DNA from: a virus
Taxonomy: Duplodnaviria; Heunggongvirae; Uroviricota; Caudoviricetes
Strand: one strand, 5' to 3'
IMG/VR virus record: IMGVR_UViG_2531839667_000012
Length of the DNA: 32,021 nucleotides
Part shown: positions 1-25,691 of the stretch, piece after piece
Position numbering within the stretch: position 1 is the stretch's first letter
Layout of the letters: the number at the start of each line of letters is the position of its first letter
Translations under genes and position numbers: made by a program
Notes under the pieces: model-generated
The model's database searches: none
The model's input: the letters and a program-made list of their open reading frames with translations, nothing else
What the model was told of the DNA's origin: nothing

Positions 1-1200
1 ATGCTGACCGATACCAAGCTGAAAAACCTCAAAGCGCGGGAAAAACTTTATAAAGTTGCAGACCGTGATGGGCTGTATGTAACCGTATCTCCCAAGGGAT
101 TGGTGACGTTTCGCTATGACTATCGAATCAATGGTCGTCGTGAAACGTTAACGATTGGTCGCTATGGTGACGGTATTTCTCTGGCGCAGGCGCGCGAAAA
201 ATTAGTGGAAGCTAAAAAACGCGTAAATGCAGGAATATCGCCCGCTGGAGAGAAGCGTGACGGTAAAACAAAGCGAAAAGAAGAAAAGACACTCCACGAT
301 TTTACCGTCAGCTACATGAAACACACCCGGCTGGCGGACAGCACAAGGGCGATGAAGCAAAGCATTATCGACAGAGACATCACCCCAGTATGGGGGCGCA
401 AGCTGCTGTCAGAGATAACCCCCTCTCTTCTACGTGAGTATTGCGACAAGATAAAAGCGCGTGGTGCGCCAGCGACAGCGATTCAGGTTCGCAATATCGT
501 TAGCGCGGTGTTTAAGTTCGCCGCGCTTCACGGCAACTATTACCCCAATCCTGCCGAAGAGGTTTTACCGGCTTCAATTGCGACATTCGAAGCGCGCGAC
601 AGAGCGCTCAAACCAGAAGAGATAGGCTGGTTTTTCAATCAGCTTGAACAAACGGGTACATTACCCACCATCAAGCTGGCCATTAAATTGGTTTTATTAA
701 CGATGGTGCGTAAAAGCGAACTGCTGAACGCGCCGTGGGGCGAGGTTAATTTTAATGCCTGCCTTTGGACGATTGACGCTAGCCGTATGAAGGGATCACG
801 GGATCATAATGTTTACCTGTCCCGGCAGGCGCAGGACATTCTGATTGCTCTAAAAATGTGCGCAGGAAGCAGTGATTGGGTTTTACCTTCATGCAATCAG
901 TCATCGCATAAGACCATGTCGGCGGCGACCTTAAACCGGGTCATTAATCTTACGGTTAAGCAGGCGCAGGAACGGGGGATCAGGCTGGCGTCGTTTTCCG
1001 TTCACGATATGCGCCGAACAGCATCGACGTTATTACATGAGGCTGGGTTTAATTCCGACTGGATAGAAAAATGCCTCGCGCACGAGGAAAGAAGCGTCAG
1101 AGCCGTTTATAACAAAGCGGAATACGCAGAACAGCGCCGCGACATGTTGCAGCAATGGGCGGATATGATTGATGGATGGATCAAGCAATACCGCCCGTGA
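1..1200 (+). CDS. int: Tyrosine site-specific integrase, P4/CP4-57 type (N-terminal arm-binding domain, HxxR box, C-terminal catalytic Tyr region)
   Basis: 399 aa ORF; N-terminus LTDTKLKNLK...GLYVTVSPKG typical of P4-family integrases; HDMRRTAST and AVYNKAEY motifs near the C-terminus. ATG is at window position 1, so the true start could lie upstream. Confidence 0.9.
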   Translation: MLTDTKLKNLKAREKLYKVADRDGLYVTVSPKGLVTFRYDYRINGRRETLTIGRYGDGISLAQAREKLVEAKKRVNAGISPAGEKRDGKTKRKEEKTLHDFTVSYMKHTRLADSTRAMKQSIIDRDITPVWGRKLLSEITPSLLREYCDKIKARGAPATAIQVRNIVSAVFKFAALHGNYYPNPAEEVLPASIATFEARDRALKPEEIGWFFNQLEQTGTLPTIKLAIKLVLLTMVRKSELLNAPWGEVNFNACLWTIDASRMKGSRDHNVYLSRQAQDILIALKMCAGSSDWVLPSCNQSSHKTMSAATLNRVINLTVKQAQERGIRLASFSVHDMRRTASTLLHEAGFNSDWIEKCLAHEERSVRAVYNKAEYAEQRRDMLQQWADMIDGWIKQYRP

Positions 1201-1828: not shown

Positions 1829-4483
1829 TTATCGTTGAAAAACCCAGCACTTCACCGTCGCCGGGCGGCGCGATGCGGCTGGGTAACGGCGGTTAAATTC
1901 GGCGTTAATGCCGCTGTTAACCGTTCTGACTTCAATAAACTTGTGGGTACGGCTGGTTTTTAGCACTCGCTTCAAATCGCTGACCGGCGGGATCTGCTGG
2001 CGGCGTTCGGTAGCCAGTTGAATAAAGTGGTTAAGGTTGACGGCGATAAGCTGTTCATCGCGCGAGTGGTTAAGCTGCGGTTCGTCGTCGCCATCGAGGA
2101 AGTCGAAAATATCCCAGAACTCCTGCACCAGAGGATGATCGGCGCTGATGGCCTGCTGGCGCTCCAGACTGAGGCGGATAAACATTTCTCTGGTTGCCTG
2201 TAGCTGCTCCTTCGTGACCGGAATAACCAGCGCCAGCGCGTCGAGCAGCGCCATAAGCTGGGCGTGGTTTTTAATGATGCGGATATGGCGAATATCGGGG
2301 TGGGCGTGAAGCTGCTGCTCGTATAGCGGGATCTGCCGGTTGACGCACTCCAGCACGGCCTGTTCCGCCAGCGCTGCCTTCAGCATAAAGCCGGAAAGCT
2401 GTTCCACCGGCAGGCGTTCGAGCTGCTCGGCAGCGACCTTGGTCTGAGTATTCTGGCCGCTGCGGTCGGTGTACAGGTGAATAATACGTTCCAGCACCGG
2501 GTTAGAGGCGCTGACGTCGGCGTTTTGCGCAATCACAATCGCGCCCCGGAACGGAGGTTCATAGGTCTCGTTACCGCTGTTACGCAGACCGCGAGACCGC
2601 ACTGACCGCCCGTTGTAGGCGGTTTTTAGCTCTTCCCAATCAAAGCCGCGTTGCTTTGCACCCTCCTGATTACGGTCACCCTCGATCAGCACCACCGGCA
2701 TGTTCGCCACCTGCGCAAAGTTGCGCGCGCGGGCGGCCAGCGTTGATTTAGACGGATCGAAACCTTCATAGTCGCGTCGGCCTAACAGCTTCCAGAGAAA
2801 CTCTATCAGCGTGGTTTTGCCGCTGCCGGGTTCGCCAACGATTTCCAGAAACGGAAAGCTCTTGTGCTTGTCGCGGATCTGTTCGGCAAACATCGTCCCA
2901 AACCAGAACGCCAGCGCCACAAAGCCCTTTGCGCCAAACGCCTGCCAGAGTAGCTGGGGCCACTGGCTGTCCATCTGTTTTAAATTGTTGTTCAGCGTCA
3001 GGCTGACCGACTGGTTCAGGCTTTTAAGGCTGAGTTTGCCCATGTCGAAGAAGTCTTCTTCGTTGAGTGTGTACAGCCGACCATCGCGAACGGCCAGATC
3101 GTTGAACACGTAAGCGCGGTATTCTTTGCTGTAGCCGATAAAATCAGTGGTCTGGACAGTTTTGATTTTGGGAAGCTGCTTGAGCAGCAACTTATCTAAC
3201 TGCTGACTGGTGCCGGTGAAGATGCCGCCCTGCGCGATATGCAGCAGGCGCTTTTTGAATTCTGAGCCGCTGGAAAGTTGGGAGCCGGTGAAGGTGTTTT
3301 TTATCGGCGGCGTGTCGTCCGGGAAGTTAATGCGAAAGTAATACCAGCTTTCGTCGGTAATGGTGTTGGCCTGATAGTAGAGGGCGGTCGGGTAGCAGTT
3401 GGCGATCTCCACCACGGCGGACGACTCTTTCAGCGCCTTCTGTTTCAGCTCTTCTTCGCTCAGGTCGTCATTGGAGAATGAGATGCTTTCATGCACCCGC
3501 ATATAGCGGTCAATATCCAGCTTGAACCAGAACAGGCGGCTGTCAAACTCGAAGTGGAACTCTTTACGCTCTGTCTGTTCGTGCATCAGCAGGGCTTTGG
3601 CGGCGGGAGAGGTGGCGATCAGCAGAGAGCCGTAGTAGCGGTATTTCTTCACCAGCTCCGGGTTAAGCCGGTCGCGCTGGTGCAAATCGTTCCAGTCCAG
3701 CTTGCTGCGGGAATGCGGCGTCTGTGCGGCGGCTGCGCTCCAGCCTTCGTCCCGGCTGCGCTTTACCCATCGCCGGGTATAGCTCATGCCCGCCTTGTCG
3801 TTATCCAGCGCCCAGACCAGTAAAGGGCGCTTTTTATCCACGAACAGCGCGGCCAGTTGACTTAACGCCTGCGCCGGATAGTTGTTGCAGGTCATCAGGG
3901 AAACGGCGGCGATGCCGTGGTGATGCAAGGCGATAGCGTCAAAAATGCCTTCAACCAGCCAGATCTCCTGTTGTTCCTCCAGTTTCAGCGTTGGCAATTG
4001 CCACCATAGCCCGCTGTAAGCGCCGTGAAAGTTGGCTTTGCGATCGCCGAAACGTTGTGGACGGTCAACGATCCGCTCCCACCACACGCCGTCAGCCAGC
4101 GGGAAACGTACCGTCGCTGAACCGATATCACGCCGTGGGTCGTAGTAGTTCTCTTGAGTGTAACAGTCACGGATCAGCGAAAGGTCAAAGCCGCGCATCT
4201 CGCGCAGGTAGGCATCGGCGGCGGCCTGTGGGTTTTCCGGGGTTGGGGGATATCTGTCTGACCAGCTTTCAAACAGATCCGGGTACATATCTTTGATGTG
4301 GATTTCGGCATTGCATTTATTCAGGCGACCGCAGCGCAATACCCACGGGCTGATGGCATTGGTGTACAGCTCTTTTTTCTGGCAGTCCGGGCAGATGCCC
4401 TGCCGCAGCCAGTCGCCCTGTTCTTTAAAGGAAAAGTCGGCCAGCAGTCGCCGCGTAATTTCCTGATGAAGTTGTGGTTGCAT
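1829..4483 (-). CDS. Primase-helicase (N-terminal zinc finger, DnaG-like toprim motifs, C-terminal P-loop NTPase), P4 alpha-like in function
   Basis: 884 aa ORF; CPDC...C cysteine cluster near N-terminus; LVEGIFDAIAL and WALDNDKAG toprim-like motifs; Walker A GEPGSGKTT; AAAGG SD about 8 nt upstream of the ATG at 4483. Confidence 0.85.
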   Translation of the reverse strand: MQPQLHQEITRRLLADFSFKEQGDWLRQGICPDCQKKELYTNAISPWVLRCGRLNKCNAEIHIKDMYPDLFESWSDRYPPTPENPQAAADAYLREMRGFDLSLIRDCYTQENYYDPRRDIGSATVRFPLADGVWWERIVDRPQRFGDRKANFHGAYSGLWWQLPTLKLEEQQEIWLVEGIFDAIALHHHGIAAVSLMTCNNYPAQALSQLAALFVDKKRPLLVWALDNDKAGMSYTRRWVKRSRDEGWSAAAAQTPHSRSKLDWNDLHQRDRLNPELVKKYRYYGSLLIATSPAAKALLMHEQTERKEFHFEFDSRLFWFKLDIDRYMRVHESISFSNDDLSEEELKQKALKESSAVVEIANCYPTALYYQANTITDESWYYFRINFPDDTPPIKNTFTGSQLSSGSEFKKRLLHIAQGGIFTGTSQQLDKLLLKQLPKIKTVQTTDFIGYSKEYRAYVFNDLAVRDGRLYTLNEEDFFDMGKLSLKSLNQSVSLTLNNNLKQMDSQWPQLLWQAFGAKGFVALAFWFGTMFAEQIRDKHKSFPFLEIVGEPGSGKTTLIEFLWKLLGRRDYEGFDPSKSTLAARARNFAQVANMPVVLIEGDRNQEGAKQRGFDWEELKTAYNGRSVRSRGLRNSGNETYEPPFRGAIVIAQNADVSASNPVLERIIHLYTDRSGQNTQTKVAAEQLERLPVEQLSGFMLKAALAEQAVLECVNRQIPLYEQQLHAHPDIRHIRIIKNHAQLMALLDALALVIPVTKEQLQATREMFIRLSLERQQAISADHPLVQEFWDIFDFLDGDDEPQLNHSRDEQLIAVNLNHFIQLATERRQQIPPVSDLKRVLKTSRTHKFIEVRTVNSGINAEFNRRYPAASRRPATVKCWVFQR

Positions 4484-4571
4484 TGCCAGTACCTTTATTC
4501 AGGTAATACTTACCCGTCGCATAGACACGTTGTTTATGCGTTGTGGTTGTGAGTCTTTTATTTACTGAGCG

Positions 4572-4802
4572 TTACGCGATTTTCTGTTTTTGCAGAAATT
4601 GCCCGCGTGTGGATAGTGGTATGTGTATCTTAGGATTCGGGCAACCGCTCGGTACCACCGTTCCCATCACGGTTTCCATTGCGATAAATGAAAACGAACA
4701 GTTAACGTTTTTGCACTGGTAATAGAGCTTACGTACCAGCGGTGACATATATTCGCTGCTGCGAATTATCGCCTTACCGTCGCAGTGTGGGCATTTCATC
4801 AT
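4572..4802 (-). CDS. ogr: Ogr/Delta-family zinc-finger late transcription activator
   Basis: CPHCDGKA...YYQCKNVNCSFSF matches the Ogr C-x2-C...C-x4-C pattern; ORF track begins at a GTG (4820), but an ATG at 4802 with AAGGAG upstream is the more likely start. Confidence 0.85.
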   Translation of the reverse strand: MMKCPHCDGKAIIRSSEYMSPLVRKLYYQCKNVNCSFSFIAMETVMGTVVPSGCPNPKIHIPLSTRGQFLQKQKIA

Positions 4803-4838
4803 GTCCGATCTCCTTACCACTTTTAACTAACTGAAACA

Positions 4839-5045
4839 CTAACGCTTTTCGTTAACGGACTGACGAAATAGTGTGATGCCGTTCAAAAAAATGATTCTTG
4901 CCATGCTGGACATCGAACGGTTCTGATCCAGCGCTAATGCTTCCAGTTCCGCGATTTCAGCGGGGAGCAGGCGCATTGCCACCGGTTTGTTCGACATCAC
5001 CCCGCGAGGTGCTCGTGAGCGTAAGACGTTCTCATTTGTTTTCAT
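4839..5045 (-). CDS. Small ribbon-helix-helix (CopG/Arc-like) regulator, first gene of the leftward operon (Cox/Apl-position analogue)
   Basis: 68 aa ORF; KPVAMRLLPAEIAELEALALDQNRSMSSMARIIF fits an RHH beta-strand plus two helices; divergent from the XRE gene; start may be the internal ATG at 4997. Confidence 0.55.
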   Translation of the reverse strand: MKTNENVLRSRAPRGVMSNKPVAMRLLPAEIAELEALALDQNRSMSSMARIIFLNGITLFRQSVNEKR

Positions 5046-5054
5046 GGTGGTATA

Positions 5055-5077
5055 TTGTGGTTATTAACATTACACAA
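5055..5077. promoter_or_regulatory. Inverted repeat TTGTG-N13-CACAA in the 55-bp divergent intergenic region; candidate operator of the switch
   Basis: Sequence ttgtggttattaacattacacaa lies between the divergent RHH (minus) and XRE (plus) genes. Confidence 0.35.
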
Positions 5078-5100
5078 AGCGTATAGGAAAAATATTCCCT

Positions 5101-5466
5101 ATGTCAACCGAGAAACAGGAAATATTTTACATTATTGGGGCTAGGTTGCGAGAAGAACGTGAGCGACTTGAGAAGAGCCAGAAATTTATGGCTGAGGCAC
5201 TTGGGGCGGATATCAAAACATGGAACAACTATGAGCGGGGGGCATCGGTGCCTGATGCTCATAAATTAACCATTATAGCGGCAGTGGGTGTAGACGTTCT
5301 GTATGTTCTGACTGGCAACCGCACGCCTGTAGTTACGTTGTCCAGTAAAGAGAGTGTGTTGGTCGAAAATTACCGTTCTGCTACGCCAGAACACCAGTCC
5401 ACCCTTGACACGGTTAGCGCTGCGCTTGCGCAACCGGGTGTAGGGAAGAAAGCTGGAGGGGCGTAA
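5101..5466 (+). CDS. XRE-family helix-turn-helix regulator (candidate immunity repressor / operon regulator)
   Basis: 121 aa; N-terminal IGARLREERERLEKSQKFMAEALGADIKTWNNYERG is an HTH_XRE/Cro-C1 pattern; AGGAAA upstream; stops 5 bp before the next gene. Confidence 0.8.
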   Translation: MSTEKQEIFYIIGARLREERERLEKSQKFMAEALGADIKTWNNYERGASVPDAHKLTIIAAVGVDVLYVLTGNRTPVVTLSSKESVLVENYRSATPEHQSTLDTVSAALAQPGVGKKAGGA

Positions 5467-5470
5467 TTTT

Positions 5471-5905
5471 ATGTTTAATACAGTATCTCTTATTATTGTT
5501 GTGATTTTGCTATGTGCTGTCGTTTCAGCTCTTATTACTCAGAAGAGAGAAAAGAAAAAAGGGAGCGTAGATAAAGTTAGTGATGAAATTTTACGTATCA
5601 GGTCTCTTGGGAAAAAACAACCGCTTTATTATTCTAACGCAACCACAAGATATGAAGAAATACCGCCGTCTGTTCAAAAAAATAGAAAAATTAATATACT
5701 GAAAATAGGAAAAGTAAAATATATCGCTTTCAGTTACATAGATAGTAAAGGTGATTTTACTCACCGTGAGGTGGATGTTTCATCTATAGATAATGAATAT
5801 TTACAAGGGTATTGCCACTTAGCTAAAGAGTATAGAACATTTCGCCTTGATAGGATTCAGGGGGATGTTATTTGTAGAGATACAGGGGAAGTTATTTTAA
5901 ATTAA
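5471..5905 (+). CDS. Membrane-anchored WYL-domain protein (N-terminal TM helix, C-terminal WYL-like ligand-binding domain)
   Basis: 144 aa; hydrophobic N-terminus VSLIIVVILLCAVVSALI followed by KREKKK; C-terminal YIAFSYIDSKGDFTHREVDVSSIDNEYLQGYCHLAKEYRTFRLDRIQ resembles the WYL signature; strongly AT-rich. Confidence 0.6.
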   Translation: MFNTVSLIIVVILLCAVVSALITQKREKKKGSVDKVSDEILRIRSLGKKQPLYYSNATTRYEEIPPSVQKNRKINILKIGKVKYIAFSYIDSKGDFTHREVDVSSIDNEYLQGYCHLAKEYRTFRLDRIQGDVICRDTGEVILN

Positions 5906-5929
5906 CGATAAATATTAAGTGAGGATGTT

Positions 5930-6331
5930 TTGAATACATATAATTTATTTATTAGTCATTCATGGAAATATAATGATACATATGAATCATTGGTACGTCT
6001 TTTAAAAGGAAGAGGATATTTTGATTTTAAAAATTACTCAGTACCAAGAATAGATCCTATCATTGGTGCTAATAGCCATTCAGCTTTATATTCAGCAATT
6101 CAAAATCAGATGCGACCGTCTCAGGTAGTTTTGATTTTAGCCGGTGTATATGCATCATATAGTACTTGGATTGATGCAGAAATAAGGATAGCCAAGGATT
6201 GGAAAAAGCCAATTATCGCTATTGAACCTTGGGGATCTGAGAGGACATCCAAGGTAGTAAAAGATGCAGCGAACAGAATTGTAAAATGGAACTCAGATAG
6301 TATTGTTAAAGCAATTAGAGAGTTGGCATAA
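5930..6331 (+). CDS. Minimal TIR-like domain protein (predicted NAD+-processing signal generator)
   Basis: 133 aa; begins LFISHSWKY (TIR betaA-like) and contains YASYSTWIDAEI, resembling the TIR SxWxxxE catalytic-glutamate motif; TTG start with GAGGA upstream; AT-rich. Confidence 0.6.
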   Translation: MNTYNLFISHSWKYNDTYESLVRLLKGRGYFDFKNYSVPRIDPIIGANSHSALYSAIQNQMRPSQVVLILAGVYASYSTWIDAEIRIAKDWKKPIIAIEPWGSERTSKVVKDAANRIVKWNSDSIVKAIRELA

Positions 6332-6341
6332 GGATTAACTG

Positions 6342-7307
6342 ATGAGAAAGGCTCTGTTTGTTGGGATTAATGAATATGCGGAAATTTCTCATCTTGCGGG
6401 ATGTGAAAATGATGCTATGAAGATGTCTGCGGCATTGTCCAGACATGCGGATGGGCGTCCTAATTTTGAAGGGAAAGATTTGATTCACCGTGAGCAGATG
6501 CCTGTAACTAAGGTATTGCTTGAGCAAGAAATTCAGACTTTATTCAGTGGTTCAGCAGATATAGCTTTATTATTCTTTGCTGGGCATGGGTATTTTGATG
6601 AAAATATAGATGAAGGGGTTATCATTCCTCATGATTACTCTTCTCATCAAAGCAATGGTGTGAGAATCAGTGATATCATGCTATGGGCATCGAGAGCAAC
6701 CAATATTAAAAATAAAATAATAATACTAGATTGCTGTCAGGCGGGCGCTGCCGGACAAGTCAGGAACTTAAGAGGTGGAGACTCCATTCTTGCTGATGGC
6801 ACAACAATATTAACCGCATGTCAGCGTGATGAATATGCGCAAGAGCAGGATGGTCAGGGTATTTTTACAGCCTTAATGTTGGAGGCTTTATATGGCGCAG
6901 GTGCTAATATATTGGGGCATGTAACACCCGGTAGTTTGTATAGCTTTGTTGACCAAGCATTAGGTGCATGGGAGCAGCGACCGGTATTTAAAACAAATGT
7001 ATCCAGATTCGTAGTGCTAAGAGAAGTCGGGCCAAGAATCCCGTTAGAAACATTAAGGCAATTACCTGATTGGTTTGCTAGTGGTAGTGCTGAATATCCT
7101 CTTGATCCTAGTTACGAGCCTGATTCAGGAGCACCAAATGAGGATAATGTAAGGATATTTCGGCAATTACAAGCCTGTAATCGTCATGGCCTTGTTGAAC
7201 CTGTTAACGCAGAACATATGTATTATGCAGCGATGAATTCAACTGCATGTAGATTGACCGCTTTGGGAGCCTATTATAGAAAACTGGCAGAGAAAAGGCG
7301 TTTTTGA
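6342..7307 (+). CDS. Caspase-like protease (peptidase C14 / metacaspase-like His-Cys dyad) with C-terminal domain of unknown function
   Basis: 321 aa; KALFVGINEY start, FFAGHGYF (His-Gly) and IILDCCQAGAAG (catalytic Cys) in caspase order and spacing; AAGGA SD 7 nt upstream; AT-rich. Confidence 0.8.
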   Translation: MRKALFVGINEYAEISHLAGCENDAMKMSAALSRHADGRPNFEGKDLIHREQMPVTKVLLEQEIQTLFSGSADIALLFFAGHGYFDENIDEGVIIPHDYSSHQSNGVRISDIMLWASRATNIKNKIIILDCCQAGAAGQVRNLRGGDSILADGTTILTACQRDEYAQEQDGQGIFTALMLEALYGAGANILGHVTPGSLYSFVDQALGAWEQRPVFKTNVSRFVVLREVGPRIPLETLRQLPDWFASGSAEYPLDPSYEPDSGAPNEDNVRIFRQLQACNRHGLVEPVNAEHMYYAAMNSTACRLTALGAYYRKLAEKRRF

Positions 7308-7332: not shown

Positions 7333-8436
7333 TCAATCCAGCCCTAGCTCACACTCCACCGCCGTCCCATACCCACTGCTGTTATCCAACGTATGCACGC
7401 ACCGCGTAATCACCCACGCGGTGCCGTCAATCTCCGCCTTAAACCCCTTCACCTGCACCGACAGTTCCGGGAACAAATCGGGCCGTCCGCGCGCAAGATT
7501 CAGGCTGAACGTTGCCGCGCCGCGCTGTAGCTGCTCCCACGCGCTTTTTGCCGCTCTGTAGGCGTTATTTTTGTTGGCATAGGTGTGGCGCAGCACCTTG
7601 ATATTTCCCTCTTCGCCAACCATCACGTTATCAGCATTGAATGAGGCGTCTGACGGCGGTGATTCTGTTGGTTGCGTTTGTGGACGGTTTTTCCGTGTCT
7701 TGCGCTTCATGTCAGTGGACTGCTTTTTTGCCTGCCGTGTATCCAGCCAGTAGGCCGTCACACCGGTATACGCCTCCCTGTCCGCGATGCTGAACCGGTG
7801 GCTGTCGCCGTCCTCGCGGGTAATGGTTGCGACCGGCAGCGGTTTGCCGCTGGCACTTTTACCGGAACCTGTCGGCATTAGCAGCAGAGCATCATTTTTC
7901 ACGCAGGCGATAGCGCCGTGCAGTTGCGCCAGCCGGGTCAGGAAGGAGGCATCGGATTCGTTAGTCTGGTCAACGTGCTCAATGGCGATCCCAGCCAGCT
8001 CGCCGCTGACGGTTGATTCCAGCTTATGACGCGCCGCCACGGTTTGCACAATCGCGCCCAGCGTCACATCATGGTAGCTCTGTTCCCGTTTAACGTTCAG
8101 CGAATCGCGGAAATCGGCGCTGCGGGCGCGGAGGCTGAGTACGTCCGGTGCGCCGCTGTGCTCCAGTTCGTCCACTGTGAAGACATTCTGGTGCATCACG
8201 CCGTCACCCTTCCAGCCCAGAGAAACCGTTAGCTTTTCGCCCTTTGCCGGAAACGCCAGCAGGCCGTCGCTGTCGTCCAGTTCGAGCTGCAGTTCGTCGG
8301 CCTCAAAGCCCCGGTTGTCGGTGATACGCAGGCTGATTAAGCGGTTGTCCAGATTCCGCGTAATGTCCTTACCGTTCAGCACCACGCTGTACTCCGGCTG
8401 CGGCTGGGCGTTTAAGAGTGCGTTTAACATCGTCAT
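7333..8436 (-). CDS. D: P2 gpD-like tail protein (late control gene D)
   Basis: 367 aa, sequence and position (after U, before ogr) match P2 gene D. Confidence 0.85.
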   Translation of the reverse strand: MTMLNALLNAQPQPEYSVVLNGKDITRNLDNRLISLRITDNRGFEADELQLELDDSDGLLAFPAKGEKLTVSLGWKGDGVMHQNVFTVDELEHSGAPDVLSLRARSADFRDSLNVKREQSYHDVTLGAIVQTVAARHKLESTVSGELAGIAIEHVDQTNESDASFLTRLAQLHGAIACVKNDALLLMPTGSGKSASGKPLPVATITREDGDSHRFSIADREAYTGVTAYWLDTRQAKKQSTDMKRKTRKNRPQTQPTESPPSDASFNADNVMVGEEGNIKVLRHTYANKNNAYRAAKSAWEQLQRGAATFSLNLARGRPDLFPELSVQVKGFKAEIDGTAWVITRCVHTLDNSSGYGTAVECELGLD

Positions 8437-13962: not shown

Positions 13963-14721
13963 TTAATTCAGGATAATCAATTCTGATGTGGCGCTGGCTG
14001 GCTTTCCACCTACGGTATAGCGAATCCCTACCGTTGAGAATGTCAGGCCGTGGAAGATATCGCGCATTTCCGGGATGTCGTTAACCGAGATAATCATCCG
14101 GCCCTGCATGGTGCGCGCCAGCTCTGCCATACGCTGGTACTGCTCAAGGCCAAATGGTACGCCGTAGCCTTCGGTTTTCCAGTATGGAGGGTCGCAGTAG
14201 AACAGGGTATGCGGGCGGTCATAGCGGCGAATACAGTCGGCCCAGTCCAGATTTTCAATGCAGACGCGCGCCAGCCGCAGATGGGCGGCGGATAAATCCT
14301 CTTCCATACGCAGCAGGTTCAGGCGCGGCGGTGAGGTGGTAGCGGTACCGAACGTGCGGCTTTCCACTTTGCCGCCGAATGCCAGCTTTTGCAGATAGTA
14401 GAAGCGCGCCGCGCGCTGGATATCGGTCAGCGTTTCTTCCGGGGTGATCTGGAGCCAGCGGTACATTTCGCGGCTGACCAGCGACCATTTAAACTGGCGG
14501 ACAAACTCTTCTAAATGGTGCTGAAGTACGCGGTAGAGGTTGGTAACGTCACCGTTGATATCATTCAGCACCTCGGCCTGTGCGGGCTGTTTCATAAAGA
14601 ACAACGCCGCCGCCCCGCAGAACGGTTCAACGTAGCAGCGGTGTTTGGGAAACAGTGGCAGAATGTGTTTTGCCAGCCTGCGCTTACCGCCGATCCACGG
14701 AATAACGGGTAACGTATTCAT
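13963..14721 (-). CDS. dam: DNA adenine N6-methyltransferase, Dam/D12 class
   Basis: 252 aa; motif I EPFCGAAALFF and motif IV FYCDPPYW; located between tail-fibre assembly gene G and FI. Confidence 0.85.
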   Translation of the reverse strand: MNTLPVIPWIGGKRRLAKHILPLFPKHRCYVEPFCGAAALFFMKQPAQAEVLNDINGDVTNLYRVLQHHLEEFVRQFKWSLVSREMYRWLQITPEETLTDIQRAARFYYLQKLAFGGKVESRTFGTATTSPPRLNLLRMEEDLSAAHLRLARVCIENLDWADCIRRYDRPHTLFYCDPPYWKTEGYGVPFGLEQYQRMAELARTMQGRMIISVNDIPEMRDIFHGLTFSTVGIRYTVGGKPASATSELIILN

Positions 14722-20327: not shown

Positions 20328-20663
20328 TTAACCGTGCGCAGCCTTCATCAGTGTATCGTTAATCCACTGGTTAACGCTTTTACCGGAGACTTCTGCCGCA
20401 ACGTTAATGGCAGAGTGAATTTCAGGTGGAATACGCAGGCTGATTTTTCCGCTGGCCGGACGCAACGGCTCCCGGCCCCGTTCCTCGCAGTAAGCCAGAT
20501 AGTCGTCTACCGCCTCTTCAAACGCTTTACGCAGATCGGCAACATTATCGGCATGAAAGCCAATGACATCCCGAATGCCTGCAACGTGACCAACAATGCA
20601 TTGATCTTCATCGCTGTATTCAATTTTTGCGGCATAGCCTCTATATGTCATGGTATTCATCAT
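20328..20663 (-). CDS. hicB: HicB-family antitoxin (RNase H-like fold N-domain plus C-terminal RHH DNA-binding domain)
   Basis: 111 aa; YRGYAAKIEYSDEDQCIVGHVAGIRDVIGFHADNVADLRKAFEEAVDDYL and C-terminal KISLRIPPEIHSAINVAA RHH-like segment; overlaps hicA by 4 nt. Confidence 0.85.
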   Translation of the reverse strand: MMNTMTYRGYAAKIEYSDEDQCIVGHVAGIRDVIGFHADNVADLRKAFEEAVDDYLAYCEERGREPLRPASGKISLRIPPEIHSAINVAAEVSGKSVNQWINDTLMKAAHG

Positions 20664-24535: not shown

Positions 24536-24635
24536 AGCATTAGCCTCTTTAATGTTGTGGTCAGAGGCCCGTTGGTGTTGGTAGCACCTGCGGGCTTCGT
24601 TCGTTTAAGGGTTGCAAAACATCACGTAATTGCGA

Positions 24636-24676
24636 TGTAATTACAACTACATCATTCTAAGGATTTTGTAATTACA
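24636..24676. promoter_or_regulatory. Two copies of the perfect 10-bp palindrome TGTAATTACA (24636-24645 and 24667-24676); candidate operators in a divergent promoter region
   Basis: Second copy ends immediately before the ATG of the Arc-like gene; an additional half-site-like GTAATTG at 24626-24632. Confidence 0.55.
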
Positions 24677-24847
24677 ATGTCAAGTGAAAAGGCTAAAACA
24701 GATCAGTACCAACTTCGTCTTGCTCATGAATTTAGAAAGCAGCTTGAAGAACAGGCTCGTAAAGATGGAGATACCTCTCTCGCAACATGGATAAAACGCG
24801 TTTTGCGTAAGGAACTTCAGTCACGAGGTATTGAACCCAAAGGATAA
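24677..24847 (+). CDS. Arc/MetJ-type ribbon-helix-helix repressor (56 aa; below the ORF-track size cutoff)
   Basis: Hand translation MSSEKAKTDQYQLRLAHEFRKQLEEQARKDGDTSLATWIKRVLRKELQSRGIEPKG; QYQLRLAHEF...SLATWIKRVL resembles Arc beta-strand and helices. Confidence 0.6.
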   Translation: MSSEKAKTDQYQLRLAHEFRKQLEEQARKDGDTSLATWIKRVLRKELQSRGIEPKG

Positions 24848-24948
24848 TTACGGAGATATCAAGCAGCGCTAAGAAGTTAGGATTATTTGTTCAGCCCAGA
24901 TTAGTCGATATGCACTGATTAACTTAAACATTGTGTGTAGGAGGTGTT

Positions 24949-25602
24949 GTGGATATTGAATTTTTTCTTAAAGAGCGCACAAGATTCGTTACTTATTTCT
25001 ATGAAACGGCTGCTGCACCATTTGTTAACATCATGAATGATATTGAGAATGAAGTGGAACCTTATATTCAGCCGTATGGTGAGAGTGATGAACCAGCTTT
25101 TTTAGATGAATGGTTAGATGCAAAGTCGGGATTAGAAACCTGTGGGCACCATGCATTATCGATGCTTTCGTCTTCTCTTCAGTTGTACCTGAAGGCGTGG
25201 GTAGATCGCTTAGGATATCATAGCGTGAAATCTGATATAAATTTCAAGAAGGGTTGGTTTAATGGCTATCGTGAAATTTTCAACAAAATTGAGTTGGAAA
25301 TGGCAAAATGTCCTGCAAATTTGGAAATAATTGAACAAATTCCCTTGGTGAGAAATCGTGTCCAGCATCCTGAGGAACTTACCTCAATTAATATTTCTCA
25401 CTCAAAAAATGACTTGGAAAAATATCCTCGCCCATACTTTATTCAGGAGTGTGAGCTACTTTTGGCTTCCGAACAGGAAGAAAAATCGTGGTTATTCCCA
25501 CCTACAATATCCCCGACTAAAGAGAAAATATTCGAAGCTATCAGAAATGTTGAAATGCTGTGCTCTTGGTTAGAGTCTGAGTATTGGTCGGCTCTTGACT
25601 AA
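24949..25602 (+). CDS. Hypothetical protein, AT-rich cargo gene under the Arc-like regulator
   Basis: ORF in the track starts at TTG 24931; GTG 24949 follows a GGAGG SD (short spacing). About 217-223 aa; no motif recognised. Confidence 0.5.
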   Translation: MDIEFFLKERTRFVTYFYETAAAPFVNIMNDIENEVEPYIQPYGESDEPAFLDEWLDAKSGLETCGHHALSMLSSSLQLYLKAWVDRLGYHSVKSDINFKKGWFNGYREIFNKIELEMAKCPANLEIIEQIPLVRNRVQHPEELTSINISHSKNDLEKYPRPYFIQECELLLASEQEEKSWLFPPTISPTKEKIFEAIRNVEMLCSWLESEYWSALD

Positions 25603-25637
25603 ATGTAGAATAGAGTAAGTCAGCGTCAAATGAAAAC

Positions 25638-25655
25638 AGCCCGACGAATCGGGCT
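25638..25655. terminator. Hairpin between convergent genes (candidate bidirectional terminator)
   Basis: AGCCCGA-cgaa-TCGGGCT stem-loop; T-run follows on the minus strand (GTTTTCA), weaker on the plus strand. Confidence 0.5.
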
Positions 25656-25691
25656 ATTATGGCTATCAGGCAAACACTACCTTCAAACTCA

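Follow-up and report, generated by a model that had tools for sequence, protein, structure and literature searches.

The region analyzed here lies between positions 4,839 and 5,466 of the IMG/VR virus record IMGVR_UViG_2531839667_000012, a stretch of 32,021 nucleotides (nt) that represents most of a P2-like prophage and is referred to below as the window. Two small regulatory genes diverge from a short spacer at this position: a leftward gene for a ribbon-helix-helix (RHH) protein and a rightward gene of the XRE family. Gene content and conservation support the view that the region controls lysis and lysogeny in a P2-like (Peduoviridae, phiE202-type early region) E. coli prophage. It is fairly probable, on the evidence presented below, that the region forms a switch with facing promoters in which XRE is the immunity repressor, that the cargo genes behind XRE are carried on the repressor transcript, and that the site downstream of XRE is a defence hotspot.

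Layout of the locus and its relatives

The leftward block consists of the RHH gene (68 amino acids, aa), ogr, a Toprim primase, DUF7673 and alpA. This is the order given in an earlier sequence-only reading of the same DNA, with DUF7673 now in place of the gene that was then called unknown. The rightward block starts with XRE and continues, again as that reading had it, into three low-GC cargo genes, with gaps of 4 nt (XRE to TM-WYL, a gene for a transmembrane WYL protein), 24 nt (TM-WYL to TIR) and 10 nt (TIR to caspase). Beyond the cargo are the P2-type tail genes (D, U, tape measure, tube and sheath), followed by lysis and head genes. The spacer separating the two divergent starts is exactly 55 base pairs (bp) long, as previously stated, and occupies 5046-5100, between the RHH start at 5045 and the XRE start at 5101. 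Gene identities were obtained with Pfam, PHROGs and PADLOC, and comprise RHH/Arc-like, HTH_31 XRE, WYL, ThsB-type TIR and Peptidase_C14 proteins, together with Ogr_Delta, Toprim primase, DUF7673, AlpA and integrase. The genes are located as follows.

4839-5045, minus strand: Arc-like RHH gene of 68 aa that heads the leftward early operon; PHROG 3431
5101-5466, plus strand: XRE-family gene, 121 aa, with an N-terminal helix-turn-helix (HTH) and a conserved C-terminal domain; HTH_31, E 1.6e-7
5471-5905, plus strand: cargo 1, N-terminal transmembrane helix and WYL (TM-WYL), 144 aa; WYL, E 1e-7, and PADLOC WYL models
5930-6331, plus strand: cargo 2, short ThsB-type TIR, 133 aa; ThsB_TIR, E 2.4e-16, and PADLOC ThsB, E 5e-12
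6342-7307, plus strand: cargo 3, caspase-like protease, 321 aa; Peptidase_C14, E 1.1e-14, and PADLOC caspase, E 6e-18
7333-8436, minus strand: P2 gpD-like tail gene, transcribed towards the cargo and forming the far edge of the slot; Phage_GPD in relatives
4572-4802, minus strand: ogr/delta-type late activator, second gene of the leftward operon; Ogr_Delta, E 1e-19, annotated as 76 aa in relatives
1-1200, plus strand: integrase; identified with Pfam, PHROGs and PADLOC

The locus was compared with 27 related loci, in 21 of which gpD fell inside the fetched DNA. The enteric loci came from E. coli prophages, two Edwardsiella species and an Erwinia metagenome-assembled genome, and one further locus from a metagenome contig. 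Those of betaproteobacterial origin came from Burkholderia, Paraburkholderia, Trinickia, an uncultured betaproteobacterium and the phages phiE202 and RsoM1USA, and the Halomonadaceae contributed three loci, from Salinicola and Modicisalibacter. The same order, with XRE and the cargo transcribed away from the spacer and towards gpD on one side and RHH followed by ogr on the other, was kept in all 27 (gpD being judged in the 21 that reached it), and homologues of XRE filled its slot in every case. In the E. coli prophages L725, GMF054 and 24A16, the corresponding element is located directly downstream of guaA. The E. coli assembly GCA_000194665.2 contains the locus in exactly the form of the window.

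The spacers of the relatives are mostly ~80-90 bp in length, and that of the window is the shortest among secure start calls. It measures 55 bp because the XRE protein of the window carries an N-terminal extension of 8 aa relative to its homologues; no alternative start codon occurs near 5101. The spacers were set side by side in the orientation of the window, and 15 switch types were used for the counts of palindromes and promoters. In the Ralstonia phage RsoM1USA, a soil isolate (L006), an IS2-like element with two transposase genes (4161-5870) is inserted between an XRE remnant and the Arc-like gene, and thus lies within the switch region.

The switch region and its proposed repressor

The elements delineated in the spacer and the adjoining codons are listed below.

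5084-5101, no strand assigned: palindrome TAGGAAAAATATTCCCTA, with half-sites TAGG/CCTA, proposed XRE operator, filling the spacer of the RHH-directed promoter
5078-5275, no strand assigned: immunity-type swap segment, comprising the right part of the spacer (operator and -35) and the XRE HTH domain
5080-5107, minus strand: predicted RHH-directed (early/lytic, Pe/pR-like) promoter; TTGACA at 5107-5102, 16-nt spacer, TATACG at 5085-5080
5029-5056, plus strand: predicted XRE-directed (maintenance, Pc/pL-like) promoter; TTCTCA, 16-nt spacer, TGgTATATT (extended -10, 5048-5056)
5064-5077, no strand assigned: conserved block TTAACATTACACAA (TTAACCTTGCACAA in Burkholderia), between the two predicted transcription starts
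5055-5077, no strand assigned: inverted repeat TTGTG-N13-CACAA, with arms at 5055-5059 (TTGTG) and 5073-5077 (CACAA)

The sequence-only reading had raised the possibility that XRE is the immunity repressor, and this assignment is now supported by a natural swap of HTH and operator, by covariation of the HTH with the palindrome, and by relatives with an S24 domain. The swap provides the cleanest evidence for the pairing of XRE with its operator. In comparison with the E. coli prophages L725 and GMF054, positions 4821-5077 of the window are ~100% identical (90-100% per 20-column bin) and positions 5290-5429 are 90-100% identical, while in the segment 5078-5275 identity is 25-55%, with one 20-column bin at 75%. 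Against L725, the HTH is 27% and the operator 35% identical. RHH, in turn, is 100% identical across the two E. coli immunity types. An exchange of this kind is the usual signature of heteroimmune phage variants, and the XRE protein of the L725 type would recognise its own predicted operator, TTCCCTCAATTGAGTGAA, rather than the palindrome of the window. The DNA encoding the C-terminal half of XRE (window 5276-5447) is near-identical across E. coli prophages that differ in HTH type and cargo, and it may act as a shared homology arm for both HTH swaps and cargo swaps.

Among the loci compared, identity of the XRE HTH and identity of the palindrome were correlated pair by pair (Mantel r 0.56, p 2e-4; r 0.42, p 0.008 after removal of near-duplicates). 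With the XRE C-terminal domain as a control for relatedness, the corresponding values were r 0.19 and p 0.12. Helices of the TEKTQVLYE/TKKTQMLYE type pair with ACCG-nn-CGGT cores, and DAQ-NYE helices with GGTC-nnnT-GGCC.

In the Salinicola loci, the proteins scanned in the XRE slot contain a Peptidase_S24 domain (E 3e-18 in L019 and 4e-19 in L025), and the Modicisalibacter protein (L027) aligns over its full length with these HTH+Peptidase_S24 proteins. On domain content, this corresponds to the LexA/lambda-CI architecture of inducible immunity repressors. The three proteins are ~217 aa in length, and these Salinicola and Modicisalibacter relatives are probably SOS-inducible. The 121-aa XRE of the window showed an HTH only, with no S24 domain in the Pfam scan, and enteric forms of this kind would need another route of induction. 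No other XRE-type HTH regulator was present among the open reading frames (ORFs) scanned, several late-region ORFs being outside that scan. Phage homologues of XRE are named repressor or immunity repressor, e.g., in Burkholderia phages KS5 and Mana, by annotation only. Sequence searches of the PDB with XRE, RHH, TIR and caspase gave generic matches or none, with no solved structure of a relative of the protease among them.

Four features are common to the aligned spacers: a TATAnT box, the conserved block, the palindrome and an adjoining TGTCAA. The latter (5102-5107) overlaps the XRE ATG and reads TTGACA on the minus strand, its TTG being kept in all spacers compared. In 12 of the 15 switch types, the highest-scoring palindrome of the spacer occupies the position beside TGTCAA; it measures 16-20 bp among the relatives and differs by lineage, at least seven of its sequences being unrelated. 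The palindrome of the window is unique within the 32 kb, where no second copy was found within three mismatches. The conserved block is kept from E. coli to the Burkholderia phages although their GC contents differ widely, which suggests a candidate RHH operator or a shared leader element.

Promoter prediction, which the sequence-only reading had named as a check on its divergent arrangement, yielded candidates in both directions at conserved positions, in a convergent rather than a simple back-to-back arrangement. The XRE-directed candidate has its -35 inside RHH codons and its -10 5 nt from the RHH start, with a predicted start near 5063. The combination TT(C/T)TCA, 16-nt spacer and TGgTATA(T/G)T is present at a single fixed position in all five enteric types; GTGGTATAnT is invariant across them, while the adjacent RHH codons vary. 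TATAnT is also present at the equivalent position in the Burkholderiaceae and betaproteobacterial relatives, with TAAGCT in its place in the three loci from Halomonadaceae. The RHH-directed candidate has its -35 over the XRE ATG and a predicted start near 5073. A blind search for the best promoter ranked first, in 13 of the 15 switch types, TTGACA or TTGnnn with a 17-nt spacer formed largely by the palindrome and xAxxxT, always equally far from the RHH ATG. The two promoters are predicted to face each other, with starts ~10 nt apart, and polymerase could not occupy both at once.

Several observations weigh against this picture. Taken alone, the palindrome of the window is not significant, since 46 of 300 shuffles score equally well. 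The recognition helices of L014/L016 and L025/L027 (KKNAQSNYE and KKVAQSNYE) are similar, yet their palindromes differ. The -35 of the XRE-directed promoter overlaps coding sequence, which confounds its conservation, and it is absent in the Burkholderia relatives. The leftward -10 of the window, TATACG, lacks the conserved final T, which is the reason why a standard promoter scan did not list this promoter. Finally, all promoter calls are consensus matches, of which 11 were present in the scanned region versus 8.2 expected.

Other candidate elements were discarded. The TTGTG/CACAA repeat, to which the sequence-only reading had drawn attention, is indeed present, but exact 5-bp inverted repeats whose loop measures 3-20 nt turned up in 68% of the spacer's dinucleotide shuffles and in 43% of 55-bp tiles taken across the window. 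Its TTGTG arm reads GTATG or GTATC in L014 and L016, the CACAA arm is lost in Edwardsiella, the Burkholderia relatives have no repeat of this type, and the arms are never kept together in more distant relatives. Being at chance level and not conserved, it was rejected as an operator and treated as coincidental. A leaderless XRE mRNA from TTAACA, 18-nt spacer and AAAAAT (5064-5093) would be confined to the type of the window and is not conserved; it was kept as a minor possibility. An internal promoter from TTGACA at 5404-5409, inside XRE, was dismissed for want of a -10 partner, and an RNA hairpin formed by the inverted repeat 5089-5105/5112-5128, which would hide the XRE start, was not significant (z -1.4).

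The position of the RHH start determines how the spacer is read. RefSeq/PGAP relatives annotate RHH as 52 aa, with a start equivalent to 4997 (L001 7839-7997, L002 10839-10997 and L033 4739-4897), which would give a spacer of ~128 bp and back-to-back promoters. This shorter form was rejected on three grounds. The N-terminal motif SRAPRGV(M/L)S is kept out to the Burkholderia phiE202 and Ralstonia RsoM1USA phages, in which residue 17, the first residue of the short form, is Leu and not Met; the full-length homologues found are all 68 aa (12 of 12); and the match to PHROG 3431, 'Arc-like repressor' (E 4e-24), covers residues 1-66 of the 67-position profile. The Pfam RHH_5 match is weak. Judged by this conservation, the long start at 5045 is the correct one, and the RefSeq form looks like a miscall. 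In E. coli 24A16, PGAP calls an ORF on the opposite strand in place of RHH.

Since RHH heads an operon carrying ogr and the primase, it would be an early lytic product, and by analogy it is proposed to be a lytic regulator of the Cox/Apl/Cro kind. Directly past its stop codon and before ogr, a terminator-like hairpin is located at 4837-4857 on the minus strand (CGTTAACG..CGTTAGTG, then TTTCAGTT), and the 70-nt RHH-ogr segment folds better than shuffles (z -2.5). This hairpin could lessen the transcription that continues past RHH into ogr and the primase. The probable start of ogr is the ATG at 4802, with the ribosome-binding site AAGGAGA. Between ogr and the primase, a 10-bp stem with a T-rich tail (4518-4540, plus strand) is oriented against the leftward operon and would stop rightward (antisense) transcription ahead of ogr and the switch.

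In the mechanism proposed for the region, an XRE dimer would keep the prophage silent by binding the lone palindrome (5084-5101), which separates the -35 from the -10 of the leftward early promoter predicted to drive RHH, ogr, primase, DUF7673 and alpA. XRE itself would be transcribed from the rightward promoter, with its extended -10 by the RHH start, and the facing promoters would be mutually exclusive, the whole resembling a compact form of P2 Pe/Pc and 186 pR/pL. RHH, as the first early product, would shut the XRE promoter in the manner of Cox, Apl or Cro, possibly via the block at 5064-5077. In the lysogen, TM-WYL, TIR and caspase would most likely be made from the repressor transcript, and a recombination hotspot downstream of XRE would exchange the defence cassettes.

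Cargo genes downstream of XRE

That the cargo belongs to the repressor transcript, as the sequence-only reading held, is supported by co-orientation, short gaps and hairpin-free junctions. In the 12 loci considered for this purpose, the first cargo gene is always on the XRE strand, the gap is between -16 and 61 nt in 11 of them, and no terminator-like hairpin was detected at the XRE-cargo junction of any by a hairpin-plus-T-run scan. The genes overlap in two Edwardsiella loci, and in the window the GGAGG ribosome-binding site of the WYL gene lies within the final XRE codons. Co-transcription with XRE is the simplest reading of this organization, and it suggests expression of the cargo in the lysogen.

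At least seven cargo sets were observed behind switches whose RHH proteins are 75-100% identical. They are as follows.

TM-WYL + TIR + caspase (window)
NA37 + RelA_SpoT
DUF6037 + NA37 + one or two unknown genes
SMODS + S_4TM (CBASS-like)
BRCT + DUF6037 + TIR + caspase + unknown + ASCH (Edwardsiella)
unknown + DUF2971, plus an opposite-strand Abi_alpha gene
TM-WYL + DUF3644

Judged from this diversity, the site downstream of XRE is a swappable hotspot for putative defence genes. Deeper in the slot, a gene on the opposite strand is present in L016 and some Burkholderia relatives. A homologue of TM-WYL occurs directly after XRE in Edwardsiella ictaluri (L018 3895-4569, RHH-plus orientation), followed by DUF3644, and in Edwardsiella anguillarum the TIR-caspase pair is present without TM-WYL. 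For these two reasons TM-WYL seems to be an independent module or an exchangeable partner. In L030 and L036, loci that are otherwise identical, the TIR ORF between WYL and caspase (~5830-6231) is not called as a gene, and the TIR gene may be disrupted in some carriers. In the Burkholderia-type relatives (L004 5670-6413, which is phiE202 gp22, and L020-L023), a conserved protein of ~245 aa always follows the repressor and precedes the variable gene. It is annotated as a membrane protein, had no Pfam hit, and may have a fixed exclusion function or be a partner of the repressor.

The principal competing explanation retains the switch as described but places the cargo mainly under its own internal promoter or promoters, or has it silenced (e.g., by H-NS), the position being a convenient site for recombination. 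We consider this unlikely, though a number of observations speak for it and against co-transcription. The GC content of the cargo is 30-43%, versus ~55-60% in the flanking phage genes, and a 2026 preprint reports silencing of AT-rich immunity loci by H-NS, which could likewise silence the cargo here. Promoter-like sites are located at 5673-5700 and 5691-5720, within the WYL gene and ahead of TIR, but their frequency is that expected by chance. In L014 the gap before the SMODS gene is 184 nt by the called start, which leaves room for a separate promoter, and 13 nt by the longest ORF. No convincing terminator was found after the cargo, in the 25-nt gap to gpD, and the cargo transcript may run antisense into that gene. 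Conversely, the 4-nt gap in the window, the overlapping genes in Edwardsiella and the absence of terminator-like hairpins at the 12 junctions weigh against this explanation. In the enteric loci, every cargo set begins with a gene on the XRE strand, and lambdoid phages with this layout are taken to share the repressor promoter (PMC8585504).

It is very improbable that XRE is a regulator or antitoxin-like partner of the cargo, with immunity supplied by another gene (e.g., RHH) or from outside the window: the weak PADLOC matches of XRE to RmrA models (E 5e-5), the HTH type of the window, which proved rare in a search for other contexts and lay, everywhere examined, in this prophage with its WYL-TIR-caspase cargo, the PHROG name of RHH and the role of Arc/Mnt-type RHH proteins as repressors in other phages are set against a slot that holds XRE homologues regardless of cargo, a C-terminal half of XRE that is identical in prophages with unrelated cargo, HTH+S24 forms in relatives that are typical of inducible phage repressors, the place of RHH at the head of the ogr-primase operon, and an operator in the RHH-directed promoter that varies with the XRE HTH and not with RHH.

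The facing-promoter switch with the cargo on the repressor transcript is therefore the reading that we retain, and it admits one extension, which is possible but doubtful. The 3' end of XRE might constitute a promoter-less 'expression slot' through which abortive-infection cargo is coupled to the switch state. Cassettes lacking a promoter would recombine behind the conserved C-terminal part of XRE and would be silent whenever the maintenance promoter is inactive. Once the prophage is induced, RHH and the early promoter that faces the maintenance promoter would shut the latter, so that the TIR-caspase suicide system would no longer be made as the lytic cycle begins. If true, this would be a transcriptional answer to self-targeting, a problem that BstA solves with the aba element. 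TM-WYL, which follows XRE with two different partner genes, might be either a separate single-gene module or a sensor in such a slot.

Some features outside the switch and its cargo were also recorded. The late region contains two accessory genes (13963-14721 and 20328-20663), a D12-class adenine methyltransferase adjoining the sheath gene and a HicB antitoxin. A stretch of ~1.1 kb (~24540-25690) has no recognisable minus-strand gene; its sole ORF (24931-25602, plus strand, 223 aa) has no Pfam match, and the stretch could be a further cargo gene or non-coding DNA. An Rfam search of the window and a megablast search against a phage collection both returned 0 matches.

Comparison with known systems

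The switch described here provides a testable map (operator, two facing promoters and immunity-type swap) for a previously uncharacterised control region of phiE202-type P2-like phages, which are common in Burkholderia and Ralstonia and are also present in E. coli and Edwardsiella; no experimental study of the switch of this lineage was found in a non-exhaustive literature search. It adds a P2-like lineage to the prophages that carry defence cassettes in the repressor operon, with gpD as the far boundary. It also helps to predict which prophage cargo is 'on' in lysogens and flags heteroimmune variants, and constructs designed to express the cargo from its native promoter should include that of XRE. 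The general principle, defence genes behind a prophage repressor, is already established, and the gain is incremental.

The sequence-only reading had likened the locus to the C-Cox switch of P2 and the CI-Apl switch of 186. This holds for the layout, which is conserved in the 27 loci, and for the predicted placement of promoters relative to start codons, but it does not extend to the proteins. As in P2 and 186, the genes proposed for repressor and lytic regulator diverge, each heading its own operon, and the promoters are predicted to be convergent and to face each other; the virion module is likewise P2-type. In the annotated P2 record, Pe has its -35 over the C start codon and O1 between its -35 and -10, and it is faced by Pc (PMC1904263). 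The predicted early promoter of the window similarly has its -35 at the XRE start codon and the proposed operator between -35 and -10. In 186, 4 nt separate the -10 of pL from the apl start codon, and its -35 is inside apl; the corresponding distance between the predicted -10 and the RHH start is 5 nt here.

In contrast, similarity of XRE to P2 C is limited to 36 aa of generic HTH (BLASTP E 0.004), with E 0.11 for 186 CI, and RHH, which is Arc-like, gives no alignment to P2 Cox or 186 Apl. Cox and Apl also serve as excisionases, whereas a separate AlpA-type gene adjoins int here. P2 C binds non-palindromic direct repeats (PMC2995052) and 186 CI binds multiple sites, in contrast to the single palindrome of the window. 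The int gene is outside the repressor operon, where its position is taken by the cargo, and replication uses a Toprim primase in place of P2 gpA. The predicted starts are ~10 nt apart, versus ~35 in the annotated P2 record and 62 nt for the promoter starts of 186. By sequence, RHH and XRE correspond to Cox/Apl and C/CI as analogues and not as homologues, and the region would work like a C-Cox switch without membership in that family.

A second parallel is found among lambdoid prophages. The defence genes rexAB of lambda and bstA of BTP1 are located downstream of the prophage repressor and presumably share its promoter, at a noted mosaic hotspot (PMC8585504), and rexAB is expressed in lysogens (PMC2147009). 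The cI-rexAB and cI-bstA arrangements resemble that of the window in having cargo directly downstream of the repressor, in the same orientation and at a mosaic site. They differ in the phage family, in the switch, which has divergent PRM/PR promoters and three operators as opposed to the compact face-to-face pair, and in the cargo, which here comprises TM-WYL and a TIR-caspase pair.

A third parallel is found in the K139-like P2-related Vibrio prophages, for which a defence hotspot between cI and int has been described (Rousset et al. 2022, PMC9122126). The two share a variable anti-phage slot directly downstream of a P2-related repressor gene, and differ in that the slot is bounded here by gpD and not by int, in the lineage (phiE202-type, with an RHH partner) and in the hosts. 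Rapid swapping of cassettes has also been described in P2 and P4 elements (PMC13586616).

The TIR and caspase genes themselves recall type IV Thoeris, in which a short TIR is combined with a caspase-like protease and the TIR makes N7-cADPR, which activates the protease (bioRxiv 10.1101/2024.10.24.620036). In common with that system, a short ThsB-type TIR and a Peptidase_C14 gene are adjacent, separated by 10 nt, on a mobile element; the TM-WYL gene upstream is an addition. By architecture the pair is type IV Thoeris-like, a type for which systems from E. coli 328 and Pseudomonas have been validated.

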